From assembly GCA_963843375.1 (NCBI GenBank), contig CAWJKT010000011.1:192001-256000 (forward strand): a stretch of DNA of 64,000 nucleotides. The letters run 5' to 3'. Position numbers and translations under genes: made by a program. Shown in pieces: positions 14,346-33,378 of the stretch (positions are counted from its first letter, which is position 1; each line of letters begins with the position of its first letter). The DNA comes from an uncultured Pseudomonadota bacterium. GTDB taxonomy: Bacteria > Oederibacteriota > Muellerivitia > Muellerivitales > Muellerivitaceae. The notes below the pieces were generated by a model that saw only the letters and a program-made list of their open reading frames with translations, was not told the DNA's origin and did no database searches.

Positions 14346-14437
14346 TGGCGGAGAGGGAGGGATTCGAACCCTCGAAAGGATGTTACTCCTTTAACGGTTT
14401 AGCAAACCGTCGCCTTCAGCCGCTCGGCCACCTCTCC
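14346..14437 (-). tRNA. tRNA-Ser(GCT)
   Basis: Minus strand GGAGAGG...ACGGT TT GCT AA ACCGT, long variable arm, GGTTCGAATCC, ends CCTCTCCGCCA. Confidence 0.96.
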
Positions 14438-14548
14438 ACGTATTCAGCGTGATTTGAAAGTTAAAAATTTTGAGTTGAGGCTATGCTTGATTTTCGTTCA
14501 ATAAAACGAAAATGCCCGGATCTTAAAATTTTTATTTGTTTTAGTAAT

Positions 14549-14635
14549 TGGCGGAGGGTGCAGGACTCGAACCTGCAAGGGGTTTCCCCCGGTGGATTTC
14601 AAGTCCACTGCCTTACCAATTAGGACTAACCCTCC
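14549..14635 (-). tRNA. tRNA-Ser(TGA), integration target
   Basis: Minus strand GGAGGGT...GTGGA CT TGA AA TCCAC, variable arm, GGTTCGAGTCC, ends ACCCTCCGCCA. Confidence 0.95.
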
Positions 14636-19525: not shown

Positions 19526-20257
19526 TTAAGGTTTATAACTTTTTTGGATAACATCCTTTAGTTGTTGAATGGTCAACCAAGGTTTTTTTCTGTGTATCAT
19601 TCGATGACAGTTAGCGCAAACGATAGAAAGGTCGTCGATTTTTGGTTTTTGTTCCGATTTCAATTCAGATAAGGGAATGACATGGTGGCACTCTGCGAAG
19701 TATTTTCCTAAGTCTCCATATTTGTCTTCAAATACAAATGTACATACTTCGCATTCCAGTTTTCCACGTTTTTTAATTACGAAGCTTTTTTTCTTTTCTA
19801 CGTTTTCAGGTTTCCGTTCACGATATGAATGTATCCTTGTTAAAATCCTGCCTTCTGGTGCAGTATCCAGTTCTTCTAAGTCTGAAGGTGTTTCAACCTC
19901 CGGATTATCGGGTTTAGCAATGGAGTTTTTTATTGCAACGGCGGTTTTGTTAAGTTCTTCTGGTTTGTCCGAAAATTCCTTCCAGACATCTTTTTCAAGT
20001 TTACTTCCAGCAGTTAGACCCTTGCCTTCGTAAGTTGGGTCATACTTTAAAAAATTACACAACTTCATATAAACACCATTTGGGTTACGGTATTTTTCAT
20101 CGCGAGTGTTAAATTCTTGAAATGGCATCCGATTTAATATTTGACTCAACTCGGTAATCTTGGGATTATTTTTAGAAAAACTTTTCCACTTTTTTTCGGT
20201 AAAATAAAAATCAAGGGCCAGAATTAATTCGTCTCGCGACCAATTAGGATTACTCAC
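19526..20257 (-). CDS. HNH endonuclease, McrA-like
   Basis: WSRDELILALD.Y N-terminal domain; EG...H..RER, CEVC, ECHH..PL and VCANCHRMIH. Confidence 0.8.
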   Translation of the reverse strand: MSNPNWSRDELILALDFYFTEKKWKSFSKNNPKITELSQILNRMPFQEFNTRDEKYRNPNGVYMKLCNFLKYDPTYEGKGLTAGSKLEKDVWKEFSDKPEELNKTAVAIKNSIAKPDNPEVETPSDLEELDTAPEGRILTRIHSYRERKPENVEKKKSFVIKKRGKLECEVCTFVFEDKYGDLGKYFAECHHVIPLSELKSEQKPKIDDLSIVCANCHRMIHRKKPWLTIQQLKDVIQKSYKP

Positions 20258-20273: not shown

Positions 20274-20663
20274 TCAGAAGATTCCGATTTTCTTTTTAAC
20301 CGCTCCGGGGTTTTTTACAATTTGACATTCCCAAAGGGTAAGCACCCTCCAGCCTTTTTTACGGAGCAACCGTTTTGTTCTCATATCCCTTTTAACATTA
20401 TTTTCAAGTTTTGGTTTCCAGTAGCTAAGTTTTGTTTTTGGCATTCTTCCGTCTTTACAACCCTTATGTTGATGCCAAAAACAACCATGAACGAAAATAA
20501 TCATCTTCTGTGAATCAATGACAAAATCGGGTTTGCCAGGAAGTGCCTTAAGGTTCATTACAAATTTAACCCCTGCGTTTTTTAAAATTTTTTTAACGCT
20601 TCTTTCTGGAAACATACCCTTGGATTTTATGCGTCTCATATTTTCACTTCTGCTAATCAACAT
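20274..20663 (-). CDS. vsr: Very short patch repair endonuclease
   Basis: RS.NM..IKSK, LPGKPD, FVHGCFWHQH, N..RD and GWRVL..WEC. Confidence 0.92.
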   Translation of the reverse strand: MLISRSENMRRIKSKGMFPERSVKKILKNAGVKFVMNLKALPGKPDFVIDSQKMIIFVHGCFWHQHKGCKDGRMPKTKLSYWKPKLENNVKRDMRTKRLLRKKGWRVLTLWECQIVKNPGAVKKKIGIF

Positions 20664-21333
20664 AAACCTCCGATTTTAAACCACAATTAACAGCTTCCCA
20701 AAGGTATCTGCTGGCAAGTGTTCTATGAGGCTTCCATTTCAATCCGATTTTCATGACTTGATCTGGCGTGGGCTTCTTTTTTAAAGAGTAGGCAATTTGA
20801 ATACCGCGTTGTAAGCCAATATCAAAACAGGGTAAAACATCCGGTCTTTGCATGTGGAAAATTAAATACATCTCGGCCGTCCATCTTCCGATTCCATTTA
20901 TTCTTTGTAATTCTTCTAAAACAATATTATCAGGCTTGGAATTCAGTTCTTTAAGATTCAATTTTCTTTCTTTTACTGCTTTACATAGATCACGTAAAAA
21001 ACCAATTTTTTGTTTTGATATCCCAATTTTTCTTAGGACTCTAAATGGGGTCCTCAATACTTTGTTTGCTGTTGGATTTTTTCGGGAATATAAAGCGGCA
21101 AAACGTGAAAAGATAGTCCTTGCAGCAGCGCTACTTAATTGTTGCCCAATAATAGCTCTCAATAAAGCTTGCAATGCCGGACGAGGTACTGAACTGATTA
21201 ATGAAAGTTTATTATTTTGAATTGCCTTAACACGCTTAATTAATTTCCCAAGTTTGGGGTCTCTTTTTGATAAATGTTTTTCACCGATTCTTTTCAAAAT
21301 TATTTCCTGTCTAAGAATGTTCGGAATGGCCAT
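20653..21333 (-). CDS. DNA-3-methyladenine glycosylase II family (AlkA-like, HhH-GPD)
   Basis: AIIGQQLS, GIGRWTAEMYLIF...RPDVLP..D and W.P.R..A..YLW. Confidence 0.88.
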   Translation of the reverse strand: MAIPNILRQEIILKRIGEKHLSKRDPKLGKLIKRVKAIQNNKLSLISSVPRPALQALLRAIIGQQLSSAAARTIFSRFAALYSRKNPTANKVLRTPFRVLRKIGISKQKIGFLRDLCKAVKERKLNLKELNSKPDNIVLEELQRINGIGRWTAEMYLIFHMQRPDVLPCFDIGLQRGIQIAYSLKKKPTPDQVMKIGLKWKPHRTLASRYLWEAVNCGLKSEVYVD

Positions 21334-21435
21334 CAATTATCAAAACACCTGTTACAAAACAGGGCAACATATACACCCTAACAATACCATGTTAAACTTT
21401 CGCAATCACAGATTCCGTTCTAAAGGCATTTTTTA

Positions 21436-22095
21436 ATGACATTTAACGAATACAAAAAAATGCTTCCGAAAAACTTAAGCATCGTTAAAGAGAAAATTCT
21501 TAAACGTCTTTGGGAAGAGGGAGATAAATTTCCTAAAGGATGGGTTAAAAGTTCCGAATTGCTTTCGATTACAAAGCAAAAGTACTTTGACAGAAGAACT
21601 CGCGAATTGCGGGATGAAATGGGTTGCGATATCGAAACAAAGATTATTGAGGCCGAACACAGCTATCGATTAAATTCCCCAAAAATAAACATATCTAATC
21701 CACGACATTATTTACCAAATAATCAAAAAGAAATCCTATTTGAAAAAAATAATTTCACCTGTTCAGTTTGTGGAAAAAAATACAAAAAAGAAGAAAAAGG
21801 ACTCCAATCTGATCATAAGATTCCATTAATGCGTGGCGGAACCAACGAAGAAAGCAACTGGCAACCACTCTGTGTGGAATGCAACGTAATTAAAAGAAGG
21901 GCTTGCGCTGGTTGTAAATTGGATTGTAAAACTTGTTCCTGGGCTTTTCCTGAAAAAATCTCTGCAAGGACACTTATACAGTTGCCCCCTAAACTTAATC
22001 AGTATTTATATGAACATTGTAAAAACGAAAACCAAACTTTAAGTGAATTTGTAGCTGAGGCTATTGAACAATATAAAACTAAGAACGAAGATTAA
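21436..22095 (+). CDS. HNH endonuclease (KpnI-like type II REase candidate) with possible C-terminal RHH domain
   Basis: RRTRELRDEMG, CSVC, DHKIP..GG....N...LC..CN..K, extra CxxCxxxCxxC; convergent with the C5 MTase. Confidence 0.7.
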   Translation: MTFNEYKKMLPKNLSIVKEKILKRLWEEGDKFPKGWVKSSELLSITKQKYFDRRTRELRDEMGCDIETKIIEAEHSYRLNSPKINISNPRHYLPNNQKEILFEKNNFTCSVCGKKYKKEEKGLQSDHKIPLMRGGTNEESNWQPLCVECNVIKRRACAGCKLDCKTCSWAFPEKISARTLIQLPPKLNQYLYEHCKNENQTLSEFVAEAIEQYKTKNED

Positions 22096-22128: not shown

Positions 22129-23145
22129 TTAATAAGATGCTGCTCTTTCCATCATTTCCAATAATGGTTCTTTCAAACCCATATAAGCTGGAACAATCTT
22201 TCTATTACCACATAAGGCCCTATTAATTTCTTTTCCAACAGCCTTTGCAACTGGTGGAGGAAAGGCGTTACCAACTTGTCTATACGCAGCAGTTTTACCT
22301 CCAACAAATTTCCAGCTATCAGGAAACCCCTGTAAACGGGCAACCATTTGAACTGTCAATTTAGGACGTGCATTTTTGGGAAAATCTGAGGGAGGTGGGA
22401 AATTAGCAATTCCTAATCCATCAACACCAAGGTGTGACCATTGTTCTTTGGCTCTAGTAGGGCCAAGATCAGGTCCTCCATGTTTTTTTGATCCACCAAC
22501 TATTGTTGGAGCAATTCCATTTGCAACTTTTACCCATTTTTTAGCTCCGGCCCATCCATTCGAGGTCATCAAGTCTAGTAATTCATAGCCAACGGTTTTT
22601 TCACACTTTTTAGGCTTAGGCCATGTGAATTTATCGGCATCTTCTCTAAGTAACGCAACTAAAATGAATCGGGGTCTTAATTGTGGGACATTGTAATCTG
22701 ATGCATTAAGCATTCTCCAATCGGCTCGGTAACCCAGGTCATTTAGAGAATTTAAAATATTTTTTCGATAACTGACGAATTTTTGGCTGGCCAAACCTTT
22801 TACATTTTCCAACATGACCGCTCGGGGCCTAATCTCGGAAACTAAACGTAAAGCATCGGGAAATAAATCGCGTTCATCCTTAGCTCCAAGTTGTTTACCT
22901 GCGATTGAGAAGGGTGGGCAAGGGACTCCGCCGGCAAGGAGATCAATTCCTTTGTAAGGCTTCCCATTAAAATCATGCAAGTCACCTTCAATTACATTCC
23001 ATTCAGGTCTGTTTACCCGCAGAGTTTTACAAGCATGGGGATCAATTTCTACAACAGCGACATGGTTAAAACCCGATTGTTCCAACCCAAGTGCTTGGCC
23101 ACCGCCTCCGGCACATATTTCTAAAGAAGTTAACGAATGCTTCAA
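22129..23145 (-). CDS. DNA (cytosine-5)-methyltransferase, NgoMIV/NaeI-like (GCCGGC predicted)
   Basis: CAGGGG, GVPCPPFS, ENV, PQLRPR and YRQVGNA; TRD APTIVGGSKKHGGPDLGPTRA is characteristic of M.NgoMIV/M.NaeI. Confidence 0.92.
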   Translation of the reverse strand: MKHSLTSLEICAGGGGQALGLEQSGFNHVAVVEIDPHACKTLRVNRPEWNVIEGDLHDFNGKPYKGIDLLAGGVPCPPFSIAGKQLGAKDERDLFPDALRLVSEIRPRAVMLENVKGLASQKFVSYRKNILNSLNDLGYRADWRMLNASDYNVPQLRPRFILVALLREDADKFTWPKPKKCEKTVGYELLDLMTSNGWAGAKKWVKVANGIAPTIVGGSKKHGGPDLGPTRAKEQWSHLGVDGLGIANFPPPSDFPKNARPKLTVQMVARLQGFPDSWKFVGGKTAAYRQVGNAFPPPVAKAVGKEINRALCGNRKIVPAYMGLKEPLLEMMERAASY

Positions 23146-23215: not shown

Positions 23216-24874
23216 TTATATAAAAGTTTTAAGCGCTAATTGCGCAAGATAAACACTCCTTTGATTAATCGACGTTTCATCCCAAGTTAAATATTTTCCA
23301 CCTATTTCCTTGGTTAATTCAATTTTCGAATCGTTGTAAATAACCACCTTTTCCTCAAAACTACTATTGGCCGCCTTTTGATTTTTTCTTGGGCCAAGCA
23401 AAGTGAGATTTCCTAAACGCCAAAGGAAAGGCTCCAAAACCGAACGATTTGACCAAGTTCCGCTTTTTGGATTTTGAGGAAAAATGTGCTCTAAATTTAC
23501 ATTGCCTTTTGCTGTTGTTTCAATTTTCTTCCCTTTTTCAATTCCGGATAAATATCGCAAGATCCATTTTGATGCGTTGGAATCAAAATCATTTTCTTGA
23601 ACACTAGAAAGAACTTGTTGATTGGTTGGCATCTTCTCTCTTAGCTTAGTACAAACAAATTGAGCTTTTTGTCCATCATTTATTGATTTTGCTTCCAAAT
23701 AAAAAGCATTCTCTAAATATTTTGTATCAATATTTCCGGCAAGCTTAAATCTTACCGAAAAAACAGCGACAGCTTTAACAATCTTTGAAAAATCAGAAAT
23801 ACCATATTTGTTAAGCGCACTCATAAGAAGCGGCATCGAATTAAAGTATTTAAAAGCGTTTAAAATCCCAGCCAAATAAATTTTTGTATTTTCATCAAAT
23901 TCCGCATCATGATCAAAATCCAATATTCTTGTGTATGCTTCGGCGCCCAATTCCAAATGTCGGGAATACTTAACACTATCTAATCCTTTTGTTTGAAGGC
24001 TTTTTTTGATTTTTCTATATAAACTCGATGCCTTTTCATCACCGTGCTGTGACACCCAAAAATGCCTTAAAAATCTTTGTACATCGATTGGACCAAGCGT
24101 GCGAAGCATATTATCCCATGTTCCTCGGACCCGATTGTGCTCACCTTTATTTGAACATTTTTGCATCAATAGATTTAGTAAAAGGTCCGGGGCAGATAAT
24201 CGCATTCCGCGATCATTCAATGATTCAAAAATCGCAAAAGAATCAGCGAAGTCACTTATTTTTATTCCAATTACTATTACACCATTCGCCAAACAATCCC
24301 GAATATCTTCTAATCGTTTTTCCCAACGACCACCCGTTTTCTTCGGCAATTCTTGTTTAATTCTTTCTAATATCTTTTCATAAGCATCTTTTAAAAGCTT
24401 ATGAGAACGGATTTTTGAAGTGCCAATAGTTGCTTCAAAATCTTGAATGTTATTTAAAAAAAAGATTTTATCGACTTCACCAAGAACTAATGAATATTGA
24501 GAATTTCTTTCGTTTTTTAAAATAAAATCTCTATGAATATCTCTCGCTAATTGATTTTCTTTGCTAAATTCCTTTGCCAAATTACGAAGAGCACAAAACA
24601 TTATGGTAGCGGTTGTAATACGTTGCTGACCATCCAAAAGGGAAATTTCATTGCTCTTTTCCTGAAGGACTAAGGGTCCAAGGAAATATTTGGATGCTAT
24701 AGATTTCTGTTTGTAAACTTTTTCAAATTCAAAAAAATCATTAAGAAATGCTTCGATTCTATCTTTATCCCAGCTAAAACCTCTTTGATAAACCGGTAAG
24801 AAGATAGAGCGAGTTTCATTTCTGCCTAAAAGTCTTCCAAATGAATAGTTTGCTGCCTCAAAGGTGCTTGGCAT
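23216..24874 (-). CDS. DUF262 + DUF1524 protein (GmrSD-like type IV restriction)
   Basis: P.YQRGFSW, LDGQQRITT, FESLNDRG, EHIFPQ and GNLTLL...N motifs. Confidence 0.88.
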   Translation of the reverse strand: MPSTFEAANYSFGRLLGRNETRSIFLPVYQRGFSWDKDRIEAFLNDFFEFEKVYKQKSIASKYFLGPLVLQEKSNEISLLDGQQRITTATIMFCALRNLAKEFSKENQLARDIHRDFILKNERNSQYSLVLGEVDKIFFLNNIQDFEATIGTSKIRSHKLLKDAYEKILERIKQELPKKTGGRWEKRLEDIRDCLANGVIVIGIKISDFADSFAIFESLNDRGMRLSAPDLLLNLLMQKCSNKGEHNRVRGTWDNMLRTLGPIDVQRFLRHFWVSQHGDEKASSLYRKIKKSLQTKGLDSVKYSRHLELGAEAYTRILDFDHDAEFDENTKIYLAGILNAFKYFNSMPLLMSALNKYGISDFSKIVKAVAVFSVRFKLAGNIDTKYLENAFYLEAKSINDGQKAQFVCTKLREKMPTNQQVLSSVQENDFDSNASKWILRYLSGIEKGKKIETTAKGNVNLEHIFPQNPKSGTWSNRSVLEPFLWRLGNLTLLGPRKNQKAANSSFEEKVVIYNDSKIELTKEIGGKYLTWDETSINQRSVYLAQLALKTFI

Positions 24875-24983
24875 TTTTGGTCCTAGTTTTAATTTGCACA
24901 ATCAATTTAGAAGGTAAATTCTAATCTAGCATTATTCTAATTTTTTTTATAAGAAAAAGGTTTTCTATTGGATACAAATTTCA

Positions 24984-25027: not shown

Positions 25028-25519
25028 TTAAATTAAGAGTCCGGCTTGGCGGAAGGAAAAATGCCCTTCGTGGGTAACTATCAAGTGGTCATGGACCGTG
25101 ATGCCCAAAGCCCTGGCGGCGGTCAAAATCTGGCGGGTTAAAGCCTTGTCTCCTTCGGAAGGTTCCAAGCTTCCGGCAGGGTGGTTATGGCTGAAAATAA
25201 TCCCCGTTGCGTCCAATTCCAGGGCCTTCTTGAGGACTTCACGGGGATAAACGGCGGTATGGTCTACAGTCCCTTCCTGGTTTAAAACCACATCTAAAAC
25301 GTGGTTCCGATGGTCAACGTACATGGTCATAAATGCCTCGTTCCGCTTCCCTCCGATGTACTGTTTGAAATACGCCACTACATCCTCCGGGCCTGAAACA
25401 ACCGGCCCTCTTTTGTAGTCCGCCCTGGCCTCTGCCCAAGAAATCGGTGGAACGGTCGGCGGTGGCACCGCCTTAACGTCGAACTTCATCTCCTCTTCCT
25501 GCACTTTGCTTGTTTTCAT
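25028..25519 (-). CDS. RadC-like JAB domain protein
   Basis: E.F..., GTVD...VYPREV, HNHPAG...PS..D and DHLIV; stand-alone form typical of mobile elements. Confidence 0.9.
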   Translation of the reverse strand: MKTSKVQEEEMKFDVKAVPPPTVPPISWAEARADYKRGPVVSGPEDVVAYFKQYIGGKRNEAFMTMYVDHRNHVLDVVLNQEGTVDHTAVYPREVLKKALELDATGIIFSHNHPAGSLEPSEGDKALTRQILTAARALGITVHDHLIVTHEGHFSFRQAGLLI

Positions 25520-25892
25520 CTCCGTGGCTCCTTCTGATGGAGCGCGCTCCGGGCCGCCCCTTCACCAACCGGATGAGGGGCGGCCCGGAGAATTTGGCCG
25601 ATAGATAGTGGAGATCACTCTCTATCGGCGCTTAATTGTTTTCGAGTTTTCCGAGGGAGTGCGATAGCGAAGCGACAGCATCCCAGGCCTGGTGACCCGG
25701 ACACGCTTTAGGTGTCCGAGGGCAGGCGACCGGTCGCCAAGGCTGGTCGGAATCAGGAGAAAACAGCCAATCGTAGCCATTTCTCGCTCTTGTCCTGCAA
25801 AATATTTGTCTTATTGTTTGTAGCGTTACCTTTTGTGCCTTGGTCTCGCCTAATGAAGTGAGGGGAAACACGCCGGTCCAAAGAGGTTCATA

Positions 25893-26519
25893 GTGACGGG
25901 TGACGAAGAATCAAAATTATTGGCCGGGCTGAGGGAAAGCGACCCCAAGGCACAAAAACAATTTTGGTCAATTTATTACAACCAAATATTTGGACACGTT
26001 CAAACGTCCCTCGCCAAAGGGCATTCCAAGGAAGACTCCGAGGAAATAGTAAGCGAGGTATTTCGACGTATTTTTCGGGACATTAAATCGTTTCAGGGAA
26101 CCAGCACCCTGAAAACGTGGATATTTACGATTGTTAGACACGTCGCAGCAGAACATTACCGGCCCCAACGGAATGAATACACGGCCCACGCACCAGAAAA
26201 GTTCACTGAGTTTTCCGAAGAGACGGTTCCCAACAAGCTCGATGAAGGGAAGCCTATCGAGGCAGCCCTGGACGAATTGGAGAGGAAAGAGCAGTTTTCC
26301 AGTGTTCTTTCACTTTTGGACGAACTAGAAACGCAACAAATCCAAACAGTTTCTTATCGCATCCTCCAGGGAATGTCCGTCAAAGAGACCTCGGATGTCA
26401 TGGGCATTTCTGAGGGCGCGGTCAAAATGTCTTTTTATAGGGCGGTGCTCAAACTCAAGGATCTTGCAGCTTCGCGAAGAGACCTTGACGATTTCACCTC
26501 AACACAAGGAGGGAAATAA
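25893..26519 (+). CDS. ECF-type RNA polymerase sigma factor
   Basis: Region 2 DSEEIVSEVF...F.G.S.LKTWIFTI.R; region 4 GMSVKET..VMGISEGAVK..FYRA. Confidence 0.88.
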   Translation: MTGDEESKLLAGLRESDPKAQKQFWSIYYNQIFGHVQTSLAKGHSKEDSEEIVSEVFRRIFRDIKSFQGTSTLKTWIFTIVRHVAAEHYRPQRNEYTAHAPEKFTEFSEETVPNKLDEGKPIEAALDELERKEQFSSVLSLLDELETQQIQTVSYRILQGMSVKETSDVMGISEGAVKMSFYRAVLKLKDLAASRRDLDDFTSTQGGK

Positions 26520-27313
26520 TGAACAAGAAATATAACGATGCTGAAAAAGCGGAAATTGTTTCCCAGTTCATCGACCAAATGAACTTGTCTGGCTCTGCTT
26601 CAATTGAGATTTTTCTAGAAGAGTACCCTGAGCTTTCAAATGAGCTCGAACCTCTTTTAGGACTTTCATTGGATTTGAAAAAAGACTTTCAAAAAACGTA
26701 TTTGGCAAATGAAGAGGTTGAGAAGAAATTTTTAAAATTTTATGAAAAGCCGACCGCGAACCGGAATCAGGTTGTTGCGGTTGCCTTAGATCAGCGTCCC
26801 GATTTTATGTTGCTCTTACTTAAGATGATGGATGGCGTAAAAGGTGTTACTAGGTTAACGAAATTGTTGTTTTTGATGGGGAAAGAAGCCCGTTTCGATC
26901 AATACGTTAACAATTACTACGCCCATGCCGCCGATAATTTTGGACCGTTTGATGATGTTATTTTCCAAGATATCGAAGCCCTCAAGAAAGTCGGTTTCAT
27001 AACAGAAGAGAATCTTGTTTTAAAAAGCGACGATGAGGATTCGAAATACGAAGGCCAACTTTATCCAAATAAAGTGCAAAAGAATTATGAACTGACTGAT
27101 AGCGGCAAAAAATTCACGGAAGAACTATTCAAAAAGGTTGAGCAGACAAGGCCAGAAGTCATCAACGATCTAAAAAAGATAATTAGTAAATATGGGAAGC
27201 TGTCTTTAAAGAGTCTTTTGACCCGTGTTTATACAGATTATCCGGAATACACAGTCAAATCGAAAATAAAAGACCAAATATTGGGGAATAAGAAAGATGA
27301 AAAAAAGAATTAA
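26519..27313 (+). CDS. Fusion of anti-sigma-like N-terminus and SocA/YwgA (Panacea)-like winged-helix domain
   Basis: N-term FLEEYPELSNELEPLL; C-term G.TRL.KLLFL...FGPF...I..D...L...Y.LT..G...LL..VY..YPE. Confidence 0.55.
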   Translation: MNKKYNDAEKAEIVSQFIDQMNLSGSASIEIFLEEYPELSNELEPLLGLSLDLKKDFQKTYLANEEVEKKFLKFYEKPTANRNQVVAVALDQRPDFMLLLLKMMDGVKGVTRLTKLLFLMGKEARFDQYVNNYYAHAADNFGPFDDVIFQDIEALKKVGFITEENLVLKSDDEDSKYEGQLYPNKVQKNYELTDSGKKFTEELFKKVEQTRPEVINDLKKIISKYGKLSLKSLLTRVYTDYPEYTVKSKIKDQILGNKKDEKKN

Positions 27314-27731
27314 GGAAAGACAACTTTTGAAACCGGTGTGTCGGTTGTTTCCGAAACTTGTTCCTGTCACTGAGTTCCCGTTCAAAGGGAAGCTTATTGA
27401 TGTCTTGTTTATTAAAAGGAAAACAGGAAAAGGAAATTTAATAGCTATCGAATTGAAAATAAAAAAGTGGAAAAAGGCAATGCGGCAGGCTGCGGTATAT
27501 CAGTTGTTCGCGCATAAGGTTTACATAGCGCTCCCCAACGATCGATTAAACGACAGGGTGTTGGAAACTGTTACGAACCAAGGGATAGGAGTTATATCGA
27601 TCGACTTAGAAAAGAAATTACTGAAAGCCAAAATTGTGAGAAGACCAAAGCCCACAAACTTCTTAAACAAAAAGTACACAGAAGAAGTCTTGGATTTAAT
27701 TAAGAAATCCAAATATGTGGGGGTCGGATGA
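27297..27731 (+). CDS. Small PD-(D/E)xK nuclease-fold protein
   Basis: E...IDVL...IAIELK..W..A..QA..Y...A..VYIA...GIGVI. Confidence 0.65.
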   Translation: MKKRIKERQLLKPVCRLFPKLVPVTEFPFKGKLIDVLFIKRKTGKGNLIAIELKIKKWKKAMRQAAVYQLFAHKVYIALPNDRLNDRVLETVTNQGIGVISIDLEKKLLKAKIVRRPKPTNFLNKKYTEEVLDLIKKSKYVGVG

Positions 27732-29029
27732 AATTTCCAGCCAAACAGCCCATCGTTTATATTCGGCCTCGTCAGACCGATAAACAATTATTGGAAGATC
27801 CAAGGATTATTGGGCATTACCAGGGAATCCACATGCCGGCAACAGCTCCAGATGGAGTCAGAGAAATGATCCGTAATCTTGGCAAGCCAACCTTTATTGA
27901 TCCTGATACGTATTTTTACTCCTTGCCGCTTAAACGTTTATTTGCGGAAGAGAAAAAAACATTCAAACCAAGTATCGGAAGGTTGTTTGGGGAATATCAA
28001 AGCATCGGGGACGTTAGTGTTACCTCATCCCGTACGATTCCCGGAAATCCGTCCGAGATTCAGTTCTTTGTAAGGCGAGTCTTGGAATTTCAAAATAGCC
28101 GTTTGAACGGCCAAACAACTTTGGTGAATGCAAATTATTCCAAATATGCCGATTGGCAAAAAAGCTATGGAGAAGTTGTTAATTACGAGACCTCGACATC
28201 TGAACCAGAATTCCTAATACCGCCTTATTTTTACTTTGATAAACATGACAATGAAAAATACAAGTTGTCATTGGCATGCGCAAAAGCTGCCCTTCGTTCG
28301 AGACCAACGGGAAGTTCCATTTACCCGGTTATCTTTTTCTCAAAAGTCTTGCTTAAGAAGGGAGATGTAATACAAAAAATTGTTGATGACTATCTTGGAT
28401 TATCCGCGGACGGATTCATCCTTTGGATTAATGATTTCAAAGAAGAAAAAGAGCCGTTAGAAACTCTACTTGGGCTTTCTGCTTTAGTTAAGAATATTTC
28501 AGGGTCCAGAAAGCCGGTCCTGAAGTTGTTTGGCGGATATTTTTCACTTTTGCTTTCTCTAAATGGATTGACTGGTTTTTCATGTGGGTTGGGCTATGGG
28601 CAATCGAAAAATGCTTTCGCTTATGGTGCGAAGATGCGCGGGAAGTTTGAACCGAAGTATTACATCCAAGCTTTACATCGGGGTGTGGAGTTACCTGATG
28701 CCGAAAGATTAATACGATCTATTCCAGAATTGAGATGCTCCTGTGTTGTTTGCCAAAAGACTTTCGGTAGGAATTTTGACAATTTTTCAAAGATGAGCGA
28801 AGCCGGTATGTGCGAATGCCATTTTCTAAATGCGCGGCGACAGGAAATTAAAGAAATCATGGAAAAAGGCAAAGACTATATCTCCAGCTCAATCAAATTG
28901 ACAGCGAACTCATTCCAAATGAATTCATTAGTTGATGTTCGTGCTTTGAAAAATTGGGCCATGGTTTTGGATGAAATGGATCAAGCGGCAGGATCAAAAG
29001 TAATTAATATAAAAAGGTCCGGGGGGTGA
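27728..29029 (+). CDS. TGT-like TIM-barrel protein with CxCxxC-x22-H zinc motif, function unknown
   Basis: FIDP, YPVI, GYFSLLL...G..GFS.G.GYG and CSCVVC(22 aa)H. Confidence 0.55.
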   Translation: MKFPAKQPIVYIRPRQTDKQLLEDPRIIGHYQGIHMPATAPDGVREMIRNLGKPTFIDPDTYFYSLPLKRLFAEEKKTFKPSIGRLFGEYQSIGDVSVTSSRTIPGNPSEIQFFVRRVLEFQNSRLNGQTTLVNANYSKYADWQKSYGEVVNYETSTSEPEFLIPPYFYFDKHDNEKYKLSLACAKAALRSRPTGSSIYPVIFFSKVLLKKGDVIQKIVDDYLGLSADGFILWINDFKEEKEPLETLLGLSALVKNISGSRKPVLKLFGGYFSLLLSLNGLTGFSCGLGYGQSKNAFAYGAKMRGKFEPKYYIQALHRGVELPDAERLIRSIPELRCSCVVCQKTFGRNFDNFSKMSEAGMCECHFLNARRQEIKEIMEKGKDYISSSIKLTANSFQMNSLVDVRALKNWAMVLDEMDQAAGSKVINIKRSGG

Positions 29030-29034
29030 TATCA

Positions 29035-29166
29035 GTGGCAAATTTTTTAGCTTTCAGGCCAAAAACTAAAACTAAAAGACCTGTCGAGTTCAAAACATCG
29101 AACGGTCAAAAAGTCCAATTCAATGCGAAGAGAAAACCGTTGAGAAGGACTAGGGTGAAGTTTTAA
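29035..29166 (+). CDS. 43-aa highly basic peptide (below ORF-track cutoff)
   Basis: GGGGGTGAT RBS, GTG start, MANFLAFRPKTKTKRPVEFKTSNGQKVQFNAKRKPLRRTRVKF, TAA at 29164-29166. Confidence 0.5.
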   Translation: MANFLAFRPKTKTKRPVEFKTSNGQKVQFNAKRKPLRRTRVKF

Positions 29167-29218
29167 GAGGCAGGTTATTAATAAAAACCCGCTCTCCAAA
29201 AGTTGAAAGGAGTAAGCC

Positions 29219-29428
29219 ATGGGAAGGTTTCATTACAATCCGAAAGGATATCCCGTCTGGAATGACAGTGGAAAATTGGTTCATAGAACTGTGGCCAAAC
29301 CCAAAGGGAATCAAGTCACCCATCATATCGATGGGAATCCCAAGAACTTCAGAAGAGACAATCTGGTCAATATGAGCCCAAGTGAACATGCGAAACTTCA
29401 TGCGAGAGAAAGAAGGCGGCCTATGTGA
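29219..29428 (+). CDS. Minimal HNH (HNH_3-like) protein
   Basis: VHR.VA...HHIDGN..N...NL......EH..LH; AAGGAG RBS. Confidence 0.7.
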   Translation: MGRFHYNPKGYPVWNDSGKLVHRTVAKPKGNQVTHHIDGNPKNFRRDNLVNMSPSEHAKLHARERRRPM

Positions 29429-29529
29429 AGGCCTAGAAAGGGTTTGGGGCAAGGCCCCAGGAGAAGGGGGTGTGCCGAGGATCGGCAAAGCCAGCCGAGG
29501 CCAGGGGGAAGGCTTTCCCCCCAAAGAAA

Positions 29530-31158
29530 TTATTTTTTAGGATAAAGATTTCTAATTATTTTTGGGATATTTACTTGAGCTAGATATGTTTCGCAAAACT
29601 CAGCCGCTCTCGGATTCTCTTTTAAAACGTCTCTGGTGAATAAAATCAGTGATTCTTCCTTCAAATTACGAACCAAATCCGCGAAAACTTCACCTACATG
29701 CCAACGATTATGGGATAAAGCAAGTATGGGCAGGCGTTTTAATATTAGAAAATGGATTTCATTATCTGTGGTCCAGTTGAATATTTTTTTGTAAAGGTTG
29801 GCGATTACATCACAGTAATCAAACCCGACCTCATCGATGTAAGAATCGTAAGATTTTAAAACCTGTTTAAATATCGTTGGTTGTTTTTCAATCATACATT
29901 TAAAAATTGGTTCTGGAATTTTTGGAAATATTTGAATCATTGCATCGGAGTTATCTGTAACGTCCAAAATTGACTTAGCAAAATCTTCGATTTCTTTGTT
30001 AGATATACGCTCTTTGTCTTTGAGTTCTCTCGCAGTTTTCAAAATACTCTCTGCGGATTTTTCAAACTCGAAACCGTCTCCGAGTAGTAAATTTAAATCT
30101 TTTAAAAACACTTGAACACTTTGGTATCTCTGCTTCGGGTCACTGTGAGTTGCTTTATTAATTAAATAGAAAAATTTTCTTGGGATTAAATCAAAATCCA
30201 AAGTGGGGTATGGACTTTTACCAGAAAGTATTTGATACAGAAGTTTTCCTAAGGAATAAATATCAGCAGGTTCTCTGGCGCTTTTGGCGTCTTCCCATTG
30301 TTCAGGGGCGACGTATCCTATTGTTCCAATAGGAAAATTAGAAAGTGTTACGGAGGGAGAATCTCGATCAATAAATTTCCCTAAACCGAAATCCGAAATA
30401 GTCGGGAAAAGACCTTTGCCTTCCTGATTTGGAAAAAGCAATACGTTTAATGGTTTCAAATCCCTGTGAATAACGCCTTTGGAATGGGCAAATGAAACGC
30501 CCTCAGCTATTTGTAAAAAAAGAGGAATTTGTTTTTCTCCGTGGTTCTTTTTTAAATATTCCTCTAAGTTAAAGTATGCTTTTGGCATTACAAACCAGGG
30601 AAGTGAAGCTTCAAGGTCCATATCTAAAATGGGAACAATATTTTTGTGCTTTAATTGGGATTGAATTCTTACCTCTCTTTTAAATCGCCTAACATCTTCC
30701 TCTTCGTGATCCTCTTTTAAAAACTTCATTGCGTAAATAGTTCCGTCTTTTCCAACAGCTTCATATACTTCACCAAAGCCACCATTGCCAATTAAGCTCT
30801 TCAAGGAATATAGATTTCTTTTTGGGCTTGAGGGTTTTTGGGATTCTTTTTCTTTGTCCGAGTAGTTCTTCTGAACAACAAATTCGACTGAAACAACTTC
30901 TGGTTCATGATCTTGAAGAGGATATATGCCACGCACCATTTCAAGAATTAGTTTTTGGTCCTCAACGCTAATTTTTTTTGTTTTAACGTAATCTTTTGGA
31001 GGAAGGTAAATGATGAAATCTGAGATTAAGGAAAATAACCGGCTTCCATATTGGTTTGATACCCGTAATTCGCTTGAGGCATCTTCAAAGATTTCCGATA
31101 AATCTTCACGGCCTTCCGCGTTCAAAAGATCAATAAGAGTTTTTATATCTTCATCCAT
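29530..31158 (-). CDS. Hanks-type Ser/Thr protein kinase with extra N- and C-terminal domains
   Basis: GNGGFGEV, AMK, HRDLKPLN, DFG and GT.GY.APEQ; no TM segment. Confidence 0.92.
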   Translation of the reverse strand: MDEDIKTLIDLLNAEGREDLSEIFEDASSELRVSNQYGSRLFSLISDFIIYLPPKDYVKTKKISVEDQKLILEMVRGIYPLQDHEPEVVSVEFVVQKNYSDKEKESQKPSSPKRNLYSLKSLIGNGGFGEVYEAVGKDGTIYAMKFLKEDHEEEDVRRFKREVRIQSQLKHKNIVPILDMDLEASLPWFVMPKAYFNLEEYLKKNHGEKQIPLFLQIAEGVSFAHSKGVIHRDLKPLNVLLFPNQEGKGLFPTISDFGLGKFIDRDSPSVTLSNFPIGTIGYVAPEQWEDAKSAREPADIYSLGKLLYQILSGKSPYPTLDFDLIPRKFFYLINKATHSDPKQRYQSVQVFLKDLNLLLGDGFEFEKSAESILKTARELKDKERISNKEIEDFAKSILDVTDNSDAMIQIFPKIPEPIFKCMIEKQPTIFKQVLKSYDSYIDEVGFDYCDVIANLYKKIFNWTTDNEIHFLILKRLPILALSHNRWHVGEVFADLVRNLKEESLILFTRDVLKENPRAAEFCETYLAQVNIPKIIRNLYPKK

Positions 31159-31185: not shown

Positions 31186-32100
31186 TTACAGGTCTAATAC
31201 TTTCCTTAAACGGGTGGATTGTTCTTGTCGCTTCTTAGCGGTCATTCGGCGGATATTTTCAAGCTTCCACCGCAAACCCGGCAATCGCTCGATGTCAGGC
31301 AAGCCTAAGAGGTTCCAATCTGGTTCTCCATCCTTGAGAGACAGCAAAAACTTCTTTTCCGAAACGGTCAAGCTTTTATGGATAAGGCGAAGTAATTCAT
31401 CCCTGGTTTCCACCAAATGTTTTAGGTCAATGGGTTCAAGGGTCATCCCTTTGAATTCTTTTTCAAAGGTGGGCTTCATGTCCTTCAATTTAGGCTTAAG
31501 CAGTTCATTCATGGGTCTGTCGTGGCTTGCTAGGTAAATAACAAACGCCCGACGGATTTCATCAGTCAATCCCTCGTTCTCCAATAGAAGTTTAATATCA
31601 AAAAAATCTCTTGGGTGTTGGCGGTCCAGGGCCGCGCAAATTTTTCCGCCGTAAAGATCGGCCAAAGATAAGAGCCGCGCGGATACCGAAAGCTCAAACA
31701 TTTCCTCGGCCTTATGGCAAAGGGTGGCTTGGACAGGGGGATAAATGGTCCCTCTTAGAACTAAGTTAGGCTCAACCTTAATCGTGGCTTCTTGGTGCCG
31801 GACGGTTAGTTTTACCGTGTGGTCGGTGCCTTTTAGTCGTTGTTCTTCGACTTGTGCACCCAAGACCCGTCTGACCTGGGTGGCGACTTCCTTGAGCGAC
31901 TTTGAAATATCAGCCAGGGCTTCTTCCCTGGTATTCAGCGGAAGATAGGTAAGGTCGATATCAACCGAAAGCCTCGGCATATCCCGGACGAAAAGATTGA
32001 TGGCCGTGCCGCCCTTTAAGGCAAAGTGGCCTGACTTTTCAACGTAGGGTAATACCTGTAAAAGAAGCTTCGCTTGCTTGAAGTAACCCGTGTCTTTCAT
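31186..32100 (-). CDS. AbiEii/AbiGii nucleotidyltransferase toxin (type IV TA)
   Basis: LKGGTAINLF...PRLSVDIDL and GKICAALDRQHPRD.FD. Confidence 0.92.
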   Translation of the reverse strand: MKDTGYFKQAKLLLQVLPYVEKSGHFALKGGTAINLFVRDMPRLSVDIDLTYLPLNTREEALADISKSLKEVATQVRRVLGAQVEEQRLKGTDHTVKLTVRHQEATIKVEPNLVLRGTIYPPVQATLCHKAEEMFELSVSARLLSLADLYGGKICAALDRQHPRDFFDIKLLLENEGLTDEIRRAFVIYLASHDRPMNELLKPKLKDMKPTFEKEFKGMTLEPIDLKHLVETRDELLRLIHKSLTVSEKKFLLSLKDGEPDWNLLGLPDIERLPGLRWKLENIRRMTAKKRQEQSTRLRKVLDL

Positions 32101-32882
32101 GTGGCACTCACAAGGGATTTGGCGGGAACGGTGATTTTGTATTTGGGGTCGAACGTGCCGCCCGGCACCACAACCCTTTTGCCTTTCCCTAAGTCCACTT
32201 TTGAAAGGTTAAGACGTTGGAACCAAGAGTGGTTGCTTGCTCGGCCATATAAAGGAAACACCGCTTCACTTTGACGGATTGGCAGGCTTTTAAGAGGGTC
32301 GTCACCAAGTCCGGCCTTAAAGTGGAAAGGCCTTCCATCAAATGGGCCGCGCCTTCAAAAGTTGTTTGTTGGGGCATTAACAGCAGGGTTTCGAGCATGG
32401 CCCTTTCGGGGGAGGAGAGGGTTATACCGGCTTGCTCGTCCTCGGTAAAACCGAATTCCTTTTTGTAGGGGAGAAAATCCGTTGTTTGGTATTGGATCTT
32501 ATTGGCCCAATTAAATTTGAGAAACCAGGAGGGTGGTTTTACCCCTTGGGGGCCAAAGAGATAGACGGGACGGTATGGAATTCATGGGAGCGGTATGGCC
32601 GTAACCATGCCACCGCAAGGCGGTTTCACCCCCGGCATGGATAGGGAGGTTAAGCTGTTGTTGGAGGGTGTAGAGGCCACCCGGCCAAAGGGGCTTAACC
32701 CCTCCTTCGGTTTTGTAAAAGGCTCCGCCACCGGCTGACTTTAGCCAACCGCCTTTTACATATTCCCGGGCTAAAAACCGACTAACGCCTTTTTGGGTTA
32801 GCCACTTTTGAGTGACCATGCCACCATGGCGGGGCCATTCGGTGAGAATTTGGTTTATTTTGCTTTTGTTTTGTGTAGTCAT
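32097..32882 (-). CDS. AbiEi-family antitoxin, interrupted by two apparent frameshifts
   Basis: K.N.....WP...GGETAL..HG (32511..32882); then SSPERAMLE...GLSTLRP...SVKVKR; then DLGKGKR...G..D.KY.ITVP ending in an ATGA overlap with abiEii. Confidence 0.8.
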
Positions 32883-33378
32883 ACTGCACATATTAGCATA
32901 ATATTAAACTTTTGACGGACTTTGGTTTATTTAAGCCTTAAAATGTGAGGTTAATATACACAAAATAGAATATTTCTAAACCATTTTCCTATTTTGTGTC
33001 ATTTTCTTGATTAGGAAAATAGCTGTTTTTAGGAAAGTTATCAAACCTTTAAAAAATGGTGACCACGGAACAACTAGGCTTTGTAAGAAAAACTACTATG
33101 TTTTTCTTACATGAAAACCAGTCGAAAAAAGAAGAAAGGCATTTCACAAACAGTCCACGGGCTACTTCTAACTCATTGAATGACACCGTTATGACAAGGG
33201 AAGAATTTTAATTGTGGTTTAAGGGTCAGACTCCGACCACAAGAGCACATCGACACCCCCGAAAATAAGGCTTTAAAAGTTCAGTGGACTTTTTGTCCAG
33301 TGGGCTTGTGTACAAGTCAAAATTGCCAAAGCCTTTAGAGTGTCATAACCGTGTCATTCATGACCATCATTTCGAGGT

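Follow-up and report, generated by a model that had tools for sequence, protein, structure and literature searches.

What does a protein with the fold and the zinc site of a tRNA-guanine transglycosylase (TGT) do directly behind a nuclease gene in a defence island, when it apparently lacks the aspartate needed for base exchange? The question is raised by P0001, a gene in a 64,000-nt window of an uncultured bacterium of the GTDB phylum Oederibacteriota (assembly GCA_963843375.1, contig CAWJKT010000011.1, positions 192,001 to 256,000 of the forward strand; coordinates below are those of this window unless a locus is named). By its predicted structure, P0001 is a true, very divergent member of the TGT superfamily with a (beta/alpha)8 barrel. 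We give a probability of roughly 0.5 to the reading that this disarmed TGT fold is the nucleic-acid-recognition partner of a PD-(D/E)xK nuclease encoded immediately upstream, and that the pair is the effector of a self-regulated module of the defence or toxin-antitoxin-like type. On the + strand, P0001 closes a compact row of four genes, in the order P0002, P0003, P0004, and P0001, and this cassette looks like an undescribed mobile anti-phage or toxin-antitoxin module. Its genes, motifs, and codons considered here are located as follows.

25824..25850, + strand: bipartite promoter-like motif CGTTACCT-N15/16-CG[C/A]C, 43 nt upstream of the P0002 start codon
25893..26519, + strand: P0002, sigma-70 family protein of the extracytoplasmic function (ECF) type, 208 aa, GTG start
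26519..27313, + strand: P0003, two-domain regulator, 264 aa; N-terminal helical domain (about residues 7-76) and C-terminal Panacea/DarG-C-terminal-like domain (about residues 90-258)
27297..27731, + strand: P0004, candidate small PD-(D/E)xK-type nuclease, 144 aa
27728..29029, + strand: P0001, TGT-superfamily protein apparently without the Asp nucleophile, 433 aa, no internal stops
27899..27901, + strand: codon of D58, which closes the third strand of the barrel (E55-58 in the model), candidate equivalent of the acid/base Asp of TGTs and DpdA
28580..28582, + strand: codon of S285, aligned to the TGT nucleophile Asp by hhalign against the genome's TGT family
28736..28822, + strand: predicted structural zinc-site motif C337-x-C339-xx-C342-x22-H365, assigned by conservation and by the spacing of archaeosine TGT (arcTGT) and DpdA

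Fold, zinc site and catalytic positions of P0001

No match to P0001 was found in Pfam, PADLOC or NCBIfam at E values up to 1. An AlphaFold2 model built on a 28-sequence alignment (mean pLDDT 84.5, pTM 0.85) shows eight strands alternating with helices and was compared, via Z score, with 48,161 PDB representatives. The best match is arcTGT (1iq8) with Z 21.0, a root-mean-square deviation of 3.5, and 300 aligned residues. Further matches are bacterial TGT (Z 19.3, 299 residues aligned), QTRT2 (Z 17.5), DpdA (7ui4; Z 16.5, 271 residues aligned), and Cap10 (9ntn; Z 14.9), whereas the first unrelated TIM barrel, at the top of the non-TGT entries, reaches Z 12.6. In a Foldseek search with the same model, 50 out of 50 among the matches listed belong to the TGT family (best E 3.9e-5, TM about 0.5). 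P0001 itself does not reach the gathering score of the Pfam TGT family PF01702 and has no match to it at E up to 1, and one of 24 distant relatives matches at 0.0024 with 17.5 bits, under the cut-off of 26.3. The lead of the TGT structures over other TIM barrels, the Foldseek result, and the sub-threshold relative are our reasons for placing P0001 in the TGT superfamily. An initial annotation, made from the sequence alone, had proposed a TGT-type TIM barrel with an arcTGT/DpdA-type zinc site, and the predicted structure and the alignment to 1iq8 bear this out. The family is large, with 681 clusters at 50% identity for E up to 0.001 and 456 for E up to 1e-10; related clusters of the ESM Atlas derive from bacteria and archaea and carry no assigned Pfam family. 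P0001 differs from arcTGT in several respects: identity is 12%, the aligned nucleophile position is not Asp, the match stops at about chain residue 354 of 577 with no counterpart of the C-terminal domains of arcTGT seen in P0001, and the genomic context is a defence island instead of tRNA modification.

In the translation of the ORF (open reading frame), C337-S-C339-V-V-C342 is followed by exactly 22 residues and H365, just as first annotated. The pattern C.C..C-x22-H occurs once in the six frames of the 64-kb window (nt 28736), compared with a mean of 0.08 and a maximum of 2 in 100 mononucleotide shuffles. All four ligands are invariant in 28 out of 28 close relatives, and among 123 wider relatives C337 is kept in 119, C339 in 121, C342 in 122, and H365 in 123. 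Due to this conservation in close as well as wider relatives, which the initial annotation had named as a check, chance is not a plausible origin of the motif. The alignment to 1iq8 pairs it with C279-x-C281-xx-C284, 22 residues, and H307, i.e., with identical spacing, and 1iq8 is also the only PDB sequence-profile match of the P0001 family (E 0.061, zinc segment only). As described in excerpts of PMC10164549 (published work is cited throughout from excerpts of the papers named), the structural zinc site of DpdA is CXCX2CX22H, its Cys triad being carried by an insertion that follows strand 8 and its His by the terminal helix. The model of P0001 resembles DpdA in both, having the Cys triad in an insertion after strand 8 and H365 in the long terminal helix 361-396. 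The attribution of this motif to arcTGT and DpdA is thus correct; in the ordinary bacterial TGT of the same genome, 25 residues and not 22 separate the last Cys (C312) from the His (H338).

Three Asp residues are invariant in TGTs and DpdAs, namely D95 (acid/base) and D256 (nucleophile), situated at the ends of strands 3 and 8, respectively, and D130 for base recognition, and both D95A and D256A abolish the exchange by DpdA (PMC10164549). DSGG is absent from the 433-residue translation of P0001, and the two segments that had been pointed out in place of the TGT motifs, FIDPDT and TGFSCG, correspond to residues 56-61 and 282-287. A profile-profile comparison of 123 P0001-family members with eight bacterial TGTs by hhalign gave a weak alignment (E 0.0078, probability 5%, 137 columns). 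Within it, KPVLKLFGGYFS of the P0001 family is paired with KPRYLMGVG of TGT, E239 with TGT E224, GFS285C with MFD269C of the genome's own TGT family, and K294 with the conserved Arg in the PTRIARN stretch, and the CxCxxC motifs of both families coincide. The alignment, weak in score, thus appears structurally sensible. Asp was never found in column 285 of the 123 relatives, the six commonest residues (S in 67, C in 25, V in 12, A in 10, T in 4, and G in 2) accounting for 120 of them. Since this column lacks Asp and is not even always polar, the Asp nucleophile would be missing throughout the family, if the alignment is right.

The situation is different for the first Asp. D58 is Asp in 28 out of 28 close and in 118 of 123 wider relatives, and is likely the counterpart of the DSGG Asp, as judged from strand order and the description of DpdA. 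The assignment was made by strand order only, because the N-terminal half of the hhalign alignments is unreliable. For the region of the base-recognising Asp (D130 in DpdA), a low-confidence alignment places the invariant PPYF there, with P166 in 123 of 123 relatives and no conserved Asp. The loss of TGT catalytic motifs, as initially claimed, therefore holds for the nucleophile and probably not for the first Asp. Apart from P166, near-invariant residues among the 123 relatives are Q122 (111), Y167 (116), F168 (115), Y312 (119), K or R at 294 (118), E373 (117), and W410 (122), with E239 in 101. This pattern suggests a pocket that is still under selection, in which binding of a ligand or of nucleic acid may have been kept.

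Candidate nuclease, regulator and promoter of the cassette

The genes of the cassette overlap throughout: the start codon of P0003 lies on the stop codon of P0002, P0004 and P0003 share 17 nt, and P0001 and P0004 share 4 nt. The core motif of P0004 (E7, D35, E52-x-K54, and Q64) is invariant in 11 out of 11 family members. Sub-threshold Pfam matches of this family fall on PD-(D/E)xK families only (MTES_1575 for 4 of 11 members, YhcG_C for 3 of 11, and HSDR_N, SfsA, NERD, and Hjc for one each), and the comparison with the PDB gave NucS at E 0.69. By motif and by these weak family matches, P0004 is a candidate member of the PD-(D/E)xK superfamily.

Single-polypeptide relatives join both proteins. 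In P0080 (560 aa) and P0091 (557 aa), an N-terminal P0004-type domain was identified by hidden Markov model (HMM) at E 1.4e-31 and 2.5e-28, respectively, with intact D, ExK, and Q motifs, followed by a C-terminal TGT-like domain (HMM E 7.5e-77 and 9.1e-75, respectively) in which the zinc motif is present. A search with P0080 yielded 21 clusters of 506-567 aa, covering 90-100% at 40-100% identity, with the nuclease domain HMM-verified in two; one of the P0080-like clusters stems from a metagenome-assembled genome of Bathyarchaeia. Due to these Rosetta-stone fusions we presume joint action of the nuclease and the TGT-like protein as a single unit.

Gene order is in good agreement with the fusions. 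In total, 26 loci were inspected, i.e., 25 from species genomes and metagenomes, several of them near-duplicates, and the viral contig L064. A nuclease gene is situated directly upstream of the TGT-like gene in 13 of the 25 loci, which corresponds to 10 of the 15 distinct loci with enough upstream sequence. The tie of P0001 to the adjacent nuclease, suggested from the window alone, is therefore supported by synteny as well as by fusion. A Panacea-like gene precedes the TGT-like gene in 21 of the 25 loci, the exceptions L009, L019, L021, and L025 being cut by a contig end. The sigma gene occupies the same place in 11 of the 25 loci according to tblastn, in L008/L010 according to blastp and Pfam, and in L064.

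The cassette recurs in unrelated metagenomes, and several variants were observed. In L022-L024, genes for a membrane protein and then a nuclease stand between a bare Panacea-like gene and the TGT-like gene, with no sigma gene, and in L025, which is cut at its start, a membrane-protein fragment precedes the nuclease and TGT-like genes. The membrane protein of L022-L025 comprises about 210 aa and has weak DUF3902 matches. In L001/L012/L013, the Panacea-like domain is preceded by an N-terminal domain with an H-x3-C-x2-C motif (first ~130 residues); no sigma gene was detected in the available upstream sequence of these loci, of which L013 begins at the Panacea-like gene. This N-terminal domain resembles zinc-binding anti-sigma or Panacea-associated zinc-binding domains. 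Two related loci of the nuclease-less variant have, downstream of the TGT-like gene, a second sigma/helix-turn-helix (HTH)-like gene (7909-8520 in L016, 3810-4412 in L017) and more genes in common. In L007 (5035-6960), a Prok-E2_E gene and a ThiF (E1-like) gene, a ubiquitin-like conjugation pair of the kind found in defence islands, are located directly downstream of the cassette.

In an all-against-all comparison of flanking ORFs, only the cassette genes were common to independent loci; since no further gene is shared, the cassette is considered autonomous. Integrases or recombinases adjoin it in L015, L016, and L024. Among 2.9 million viral contigs, a single one (L064) carries sigma, Panacea-like, and TGT-like genes, at the contig end.

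The AlphaFold2 model of P0003 (pLDDT 80.6) consists of helices at residues 7-76 and a C-terminal domain at residues 90-258, joined by a linker of low confidence. The best PDB match of the C-terminal domain is 7yk3_D, one chain of a DarTG complex (Z 10.8, 148 residues), above the generic winged-helix proteins at about Z 8. According to the excerpts of PMC13621843 (2026), DUF4065 (Panacea) proteins share homology with the C-terminal domain by which DarG inhibits DarT, and PDB 7YK3 is cited. Three of 14 P0003-family members match Pfam SocA_Panacea (PF13274), the best at 4.6e-6 with 28 bits versus a cut-off of 25.7, and when the family was aligned by hhalign with 17 Panacea proteins encoded by genomes of the phylum, E was 4.8e-4 and probability 32% over 140 columns. 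Because P0003 remains below the Pfam cut-off, its domain is termed Panacea-like. P0003 also matches the PADLOC candidate model PDC-M19A (2.3e-14); PDC-M19 is named nowhere in the literature searched, which comprised open-access papers and bioRxiv main texts. A homologue search with P0003 gave 4 relatives, PDB profile and BFVD fold searches gave nothing significant, and the Panacea profile matched only HTH domains in the PDB. The N-terminal helical domain is a candidate anti-sigma domain.

P0002 contains sigma regions 2 and 4 as judged by its Pfam matches Sigma70_ECF (PF07638, 4.1e-11), Sigma70_r2 (PF04542), and Sigma70_r4_2 (PF08281), and it reaches 73.2 bits in NCBIfam TIGR02937 versus a cut-off of 42.9. 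The bipartite motif in front of it was derived from the 220-nt regions that precede the sigma genes. It has one match in the window versus 0.02 expected, one match in each of nine sigma-bearing related loci with enough upstream DNA, and none in 54 other loci. Both boxes are invariant in seven out of seven aligned upstream regions, the flanks of which vary, and a stricter version of the motif has a single match in the whole 4.05-Mb assembly and none in the reversed control. We propose this motif as the candidate cognate, autoregulated ECF promoter of the cassette. In a scan of the operon for sigma-70-type promoters, sites were no more numerous than in shuffles. With sigma factor, Panacea-like regulator, and conserved promoter, the locus is a regulated four-gene module and not a two-gene pair, as it was first read.

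Recognition partner or enzyme

The proposed mechanism is as follows. Having lost its nucleophile, P0001 would not perform the classical base exchange, given that the alignment is right. It may still grip nucleic acid and take a flipped-out base into its barrel pocket, which fits the zinc subdomain, the basic residue 294, and the conserved, aromatic-rich pocket. In this way, it would serve as the recognition subunit of P0004, and both together would form the effector of a self-contained, horizontally mobile conflict module. P0002 would drive the operon from its conserved cognate promoter, and P0003, through its anti-sigma-like N-terminal domain and its Panacea/DarG-C-terminal-like domain, would keep the system off as long as no trigger is sensed. 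Panacea has been proposed as the sensor where other domains neutralise (PMC10440598). A reader plus nuclease is favoured because synteny and fusions tie P0001 to the nuclease, and the link to toxin-antitoxin or defence systems is drawn from the Panacea-like partner and the island (PMC8832971, PMC10440598).

Several observations weigh against this reading. In 5 of the 15 distinct loci (L001/L012, L013, L008/L010, L016, and L017/L018) as well as in L064, no nuclease gene is found beside the TGT-like gene; the TGT-like protein must be able to act without a nuclease there, which is a better fit to a toxin or enzyme. The residues D58, Q122, E239, and Y312 could equally form a new catalytic centre, and the mapping of S285 onto the nucleophile depends on the weak hhalign alignment (E 0.0078, probability 5%) and on strand order. 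P0003 has no Panacea match of its own in Pfam. Furthermore, tblastn with P0001 found no relative among 50,697 records of phages and 72,556 of plasmids, and mobility of the cassette is therefore deduced from its patchy occurrence only.

These points lead to an explanation that we regard as possible, if rather doubtful, namely that toxic or enzymatic activity resides in the TGT-like protein itself, which would be a TGT-derived N-glycosidase or base exchanger with changed chemistry, neutralised by the Panacea-like protein as in PanAT systems and with the nuclease as an optional accessory. Water activated by D58 or E239, or a Ser or Cys at position 285, might for example take part in damaging tRNA or DNA. 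The minimal pair of L001/L012 and L013, a Panacea-like gene followed at 16-17 nt by the TGT-like gene with no nuclease gene or sigma match in the available sequence, would suit such a protein. The antitoxin-first order is the usual layout of two-gene PanAT systems (PMC8832971), and Panacea pairs with dozens of unrelated toxin folds (PMC8832971, PMC10440598). The polar set D58, Q122, E239, and Y312 lies at strand ends, and 92 of 123 relatives have S or C at position 285. However, V, A or G occupies this position in 24 of the 123, so that it cannot be a universal nucleophile, and the three Asp of TGTs and DpdA are invariant there, with D95 and D256 required for exchange by mutation (PMC10164549). 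Nuclease fusions in at least two, probably 21, clusters argue for a joint effector, and three supplement files of the Panacea survey make no mention of a transglycosylase, TGT, archaeosine, queuine or a TIM barrel. A system resembling Dpd, in which the TGT-like protein marks host DNA and the nuclease restricts unmarked DNA, is highly improbable. It would explain the DpdA match, the same CXCX2CX22H site, and the adjoining nuclease, but Asp is lacking at the aligned nucleophile position, Dpd comprises neither a Panacea-like protein nor a sigma factor, and no PADLOC match to Dpd was obtained. Neither DpdB-like nor preQ0-synthesis genes occur in the cassette or among 13 neighbouring ORFs scanned for families between 19.5 and 34.7 kb, where DpdB-specific models were not searched. 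The initial statement that the window lacks que and dpd genes thus holds for these 13 ORFs and for PF01702, the other que/dpd families being unscanned in the rest. Elsewhere in the assembly, which is 80% complete, QueD/PTPS is encoded on contig C4, and for QueC only two weak partial matches were obtained, on C1 and C9, in ORFs of more than 630 residues.

Kinship of P0001 with the phage P4 beta protein or sce7725-type TIM-barrel proteins, brought up as an alternative in the initial annotation, was rejected and is barely credible. Both are TIM-barrel-like proteins of mobile elements, and a low-confidence hhalign match to four Beta_protein sequences spans one beta-alpha unit. This match has E 0.26 and probability 0.2% over 38 columns, as opposed to E 0.0078 over 137 columns for TGT, and the consensus of the four sequences lacks CxCxxC...H. 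No match to PF14350 (Beta_protein) was found for P0001 (E up to 1), for its 24 distant relatives (E up to 0.1) or for the genome, nor was there a NCBIfam match. That P0001 is an ordinary tRNA-modifying TGT paralogue of the host is scarcely conceivable in spite of its fold and zinc site: a canonical TGT, the only PF01702 match of the assembly (5.5e-159), is already encoded on contig C15, and among 99 genomes of the phylum this is the only one with a member of the P0001 family, which is absent from G001, a genome of the same genus that is 99% complete. Moreover, P0001 lies in a low-GC island and has no Asp at the aligned nucleophile position.

With DpdA, the DNA preQ0 insertase of the Dpd restriction-modification system, P0001 shares the TGT barrel, the Cys and His placement of the zinc site, and, as proposed here, employment in a conflict system alongside nuclease-type partners. 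In DpdA, however, all three Asp (D95, D130, and D256) are kept, and the enzyme depends on DpdB and on preQ0 synthesis (PMC10164549), whereas P0001 is accompanied by a sigma factor, the Panacea-like P0003, and the PD-(D/E)xK protein P0004. Another TGT fold remodelled for a non-tRNA task, in anti-phage defence, is Cap10 of type IV CBASS (10.1101/2025.04.06.647259), but it is without the zinc site and keeps D248 and the base-reading D73/S74/D122/K154, i.e., the reverse of P0001. Neither the cassette nor the 13 ORFs scanned around it include a CD-NTase or a QueC-like Cap9. To PanAT systems and the C-terminal domain of DarG the cassette is similar in its invariable Panacea-like partner, the antitoxin-first order, and the tight spacing; it differs in its four genes, including a sigma factor and promoter, and in the sub-threshold Pfam score of P0003. 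A TGT partner fold is not mentioned in the main-text passages and three supplement files of the Panacea survey PMC8832971, and in the open-access papers and bioRxiv main texts searched, no paper linked a Panacea antitoxin to a transglycosylase.

Type IV modification-dependent restriction enzymes combine a base-flipping reader with a PD-(D/E)xK or HNH nuclease, as in the MspJI and SRA-HNH types. The fusion relatives of P0001 are comparable in joining a small nuclease domain to a domain descended from base-flipping enzymes, and the cassette lies in the same island as, and beside, a GmrSD type IV enzyme. A TGT-fold reader would be new among such enzymes, which normally have no sigma factor or antitoxin-like regulator.

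It is tempting to speculate further that a disarmed descendant of DpdA, the enzyme with which phages introduce 7-deazaguanines into their own DNA, flips out and reads a 7-deazaguanine (preQ0, ADG, G+ or a relative) in phage DNA and hands the DNA over to the nuclease, with a Panacea-type anti-sigma silencing the module and the private ECF sigma factor and promoter switching it on. In this specific form the proposal is unlikely. Defences aimed at 7-deazaguanine DNA do exist, since the helix-hairpin-helix (HhH) DNA glycosylases Dag1 and Dag2 defend against phages modified in this way (10.1101/2025.10.29.685425). These are single-gene glycosylases of a different fold, and TGT is not mentioned in the excerpts of their paper. 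The open-access and bioRxiv literature searched contained nothing on the P0001 family among work on TGT-like defence or DpdA-like/tgtA5 proteins, and, in the excerpts concerned, no TGT-fold reader in work on 7-deazaguanine modification-dependent restriction.

For TGT folds in conflict systems, two roles are described in the literature examined: DpdA inserts preQ0 into DNA, and Cap10 handles deazaguanine-tagged protein. If the reading as recognition partner is true, the P0001 family would represent a third co-option of the TGT fold and the first that keeps the zinc site without the nucleophile. Its tie to the nuclease by synteny and fusion makes it a candidate for a new nucleic-acid reader domain. 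The combination of Panacea-like domain, sigma factor, and private promoter would offer a rare handle on Panacea sensing and on licensing of a defence effector at the level of transcription. If the 7-deazaguanine reading were also true, modification-dependent restriction would have been built from the modifier's own fold.

Island and neighbouring genes

The cassette is located in a stretch of aberrant composition: from 20 to 32 kb of the window, GC is 0.36-0.43, compared with about 0.50 around. The same-genus genome G001 is collinear with the window at 10.2-18.6 kb and 35.7-45 kb, and not at 18.6-32.1 kb. This variable island is crowded with genes of defence type. Among the neighbouring ORFs scanned, the following families were identified.

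19526-20257: HNH
20274-20663: Vsr
20653-21336, - strand: HhH-GPD glycosylase
21436-22095: HNH
22129-23145: C5 DNA methyltransferase (Dcm)
23216-24901: GmrSD
25028-25519: RadC
29150-31158, - strand: Ser/Thr protein kinase of 542 aa (Pkinase at residues 117-390), then a 124-aa ORF without family match
31186-32100 and 32511-32891: AbiEii/AbiEi

The HhH-GPD gene overlaps the Vsr-like gene and is flanked by two HNH genes and the Dcm methyltransferase gene. Its product may be a glycosylase that acts in defence instead of repair, a role considered because HhH glycosylases are reported to act against 7-deazaguanine phages (10.1101/2025.10.29.685425). The kinase gene and the 124-aa ORF are convergent with the cassette and may constitute another defence module. 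The 16-18 kb bin of the window is unusually GC-rich (0.594), and two tRNA-Ser genes with GCT and TGA anticodons are located at 14346-14635 on the - strand, about 4 kb left of the island boundary.

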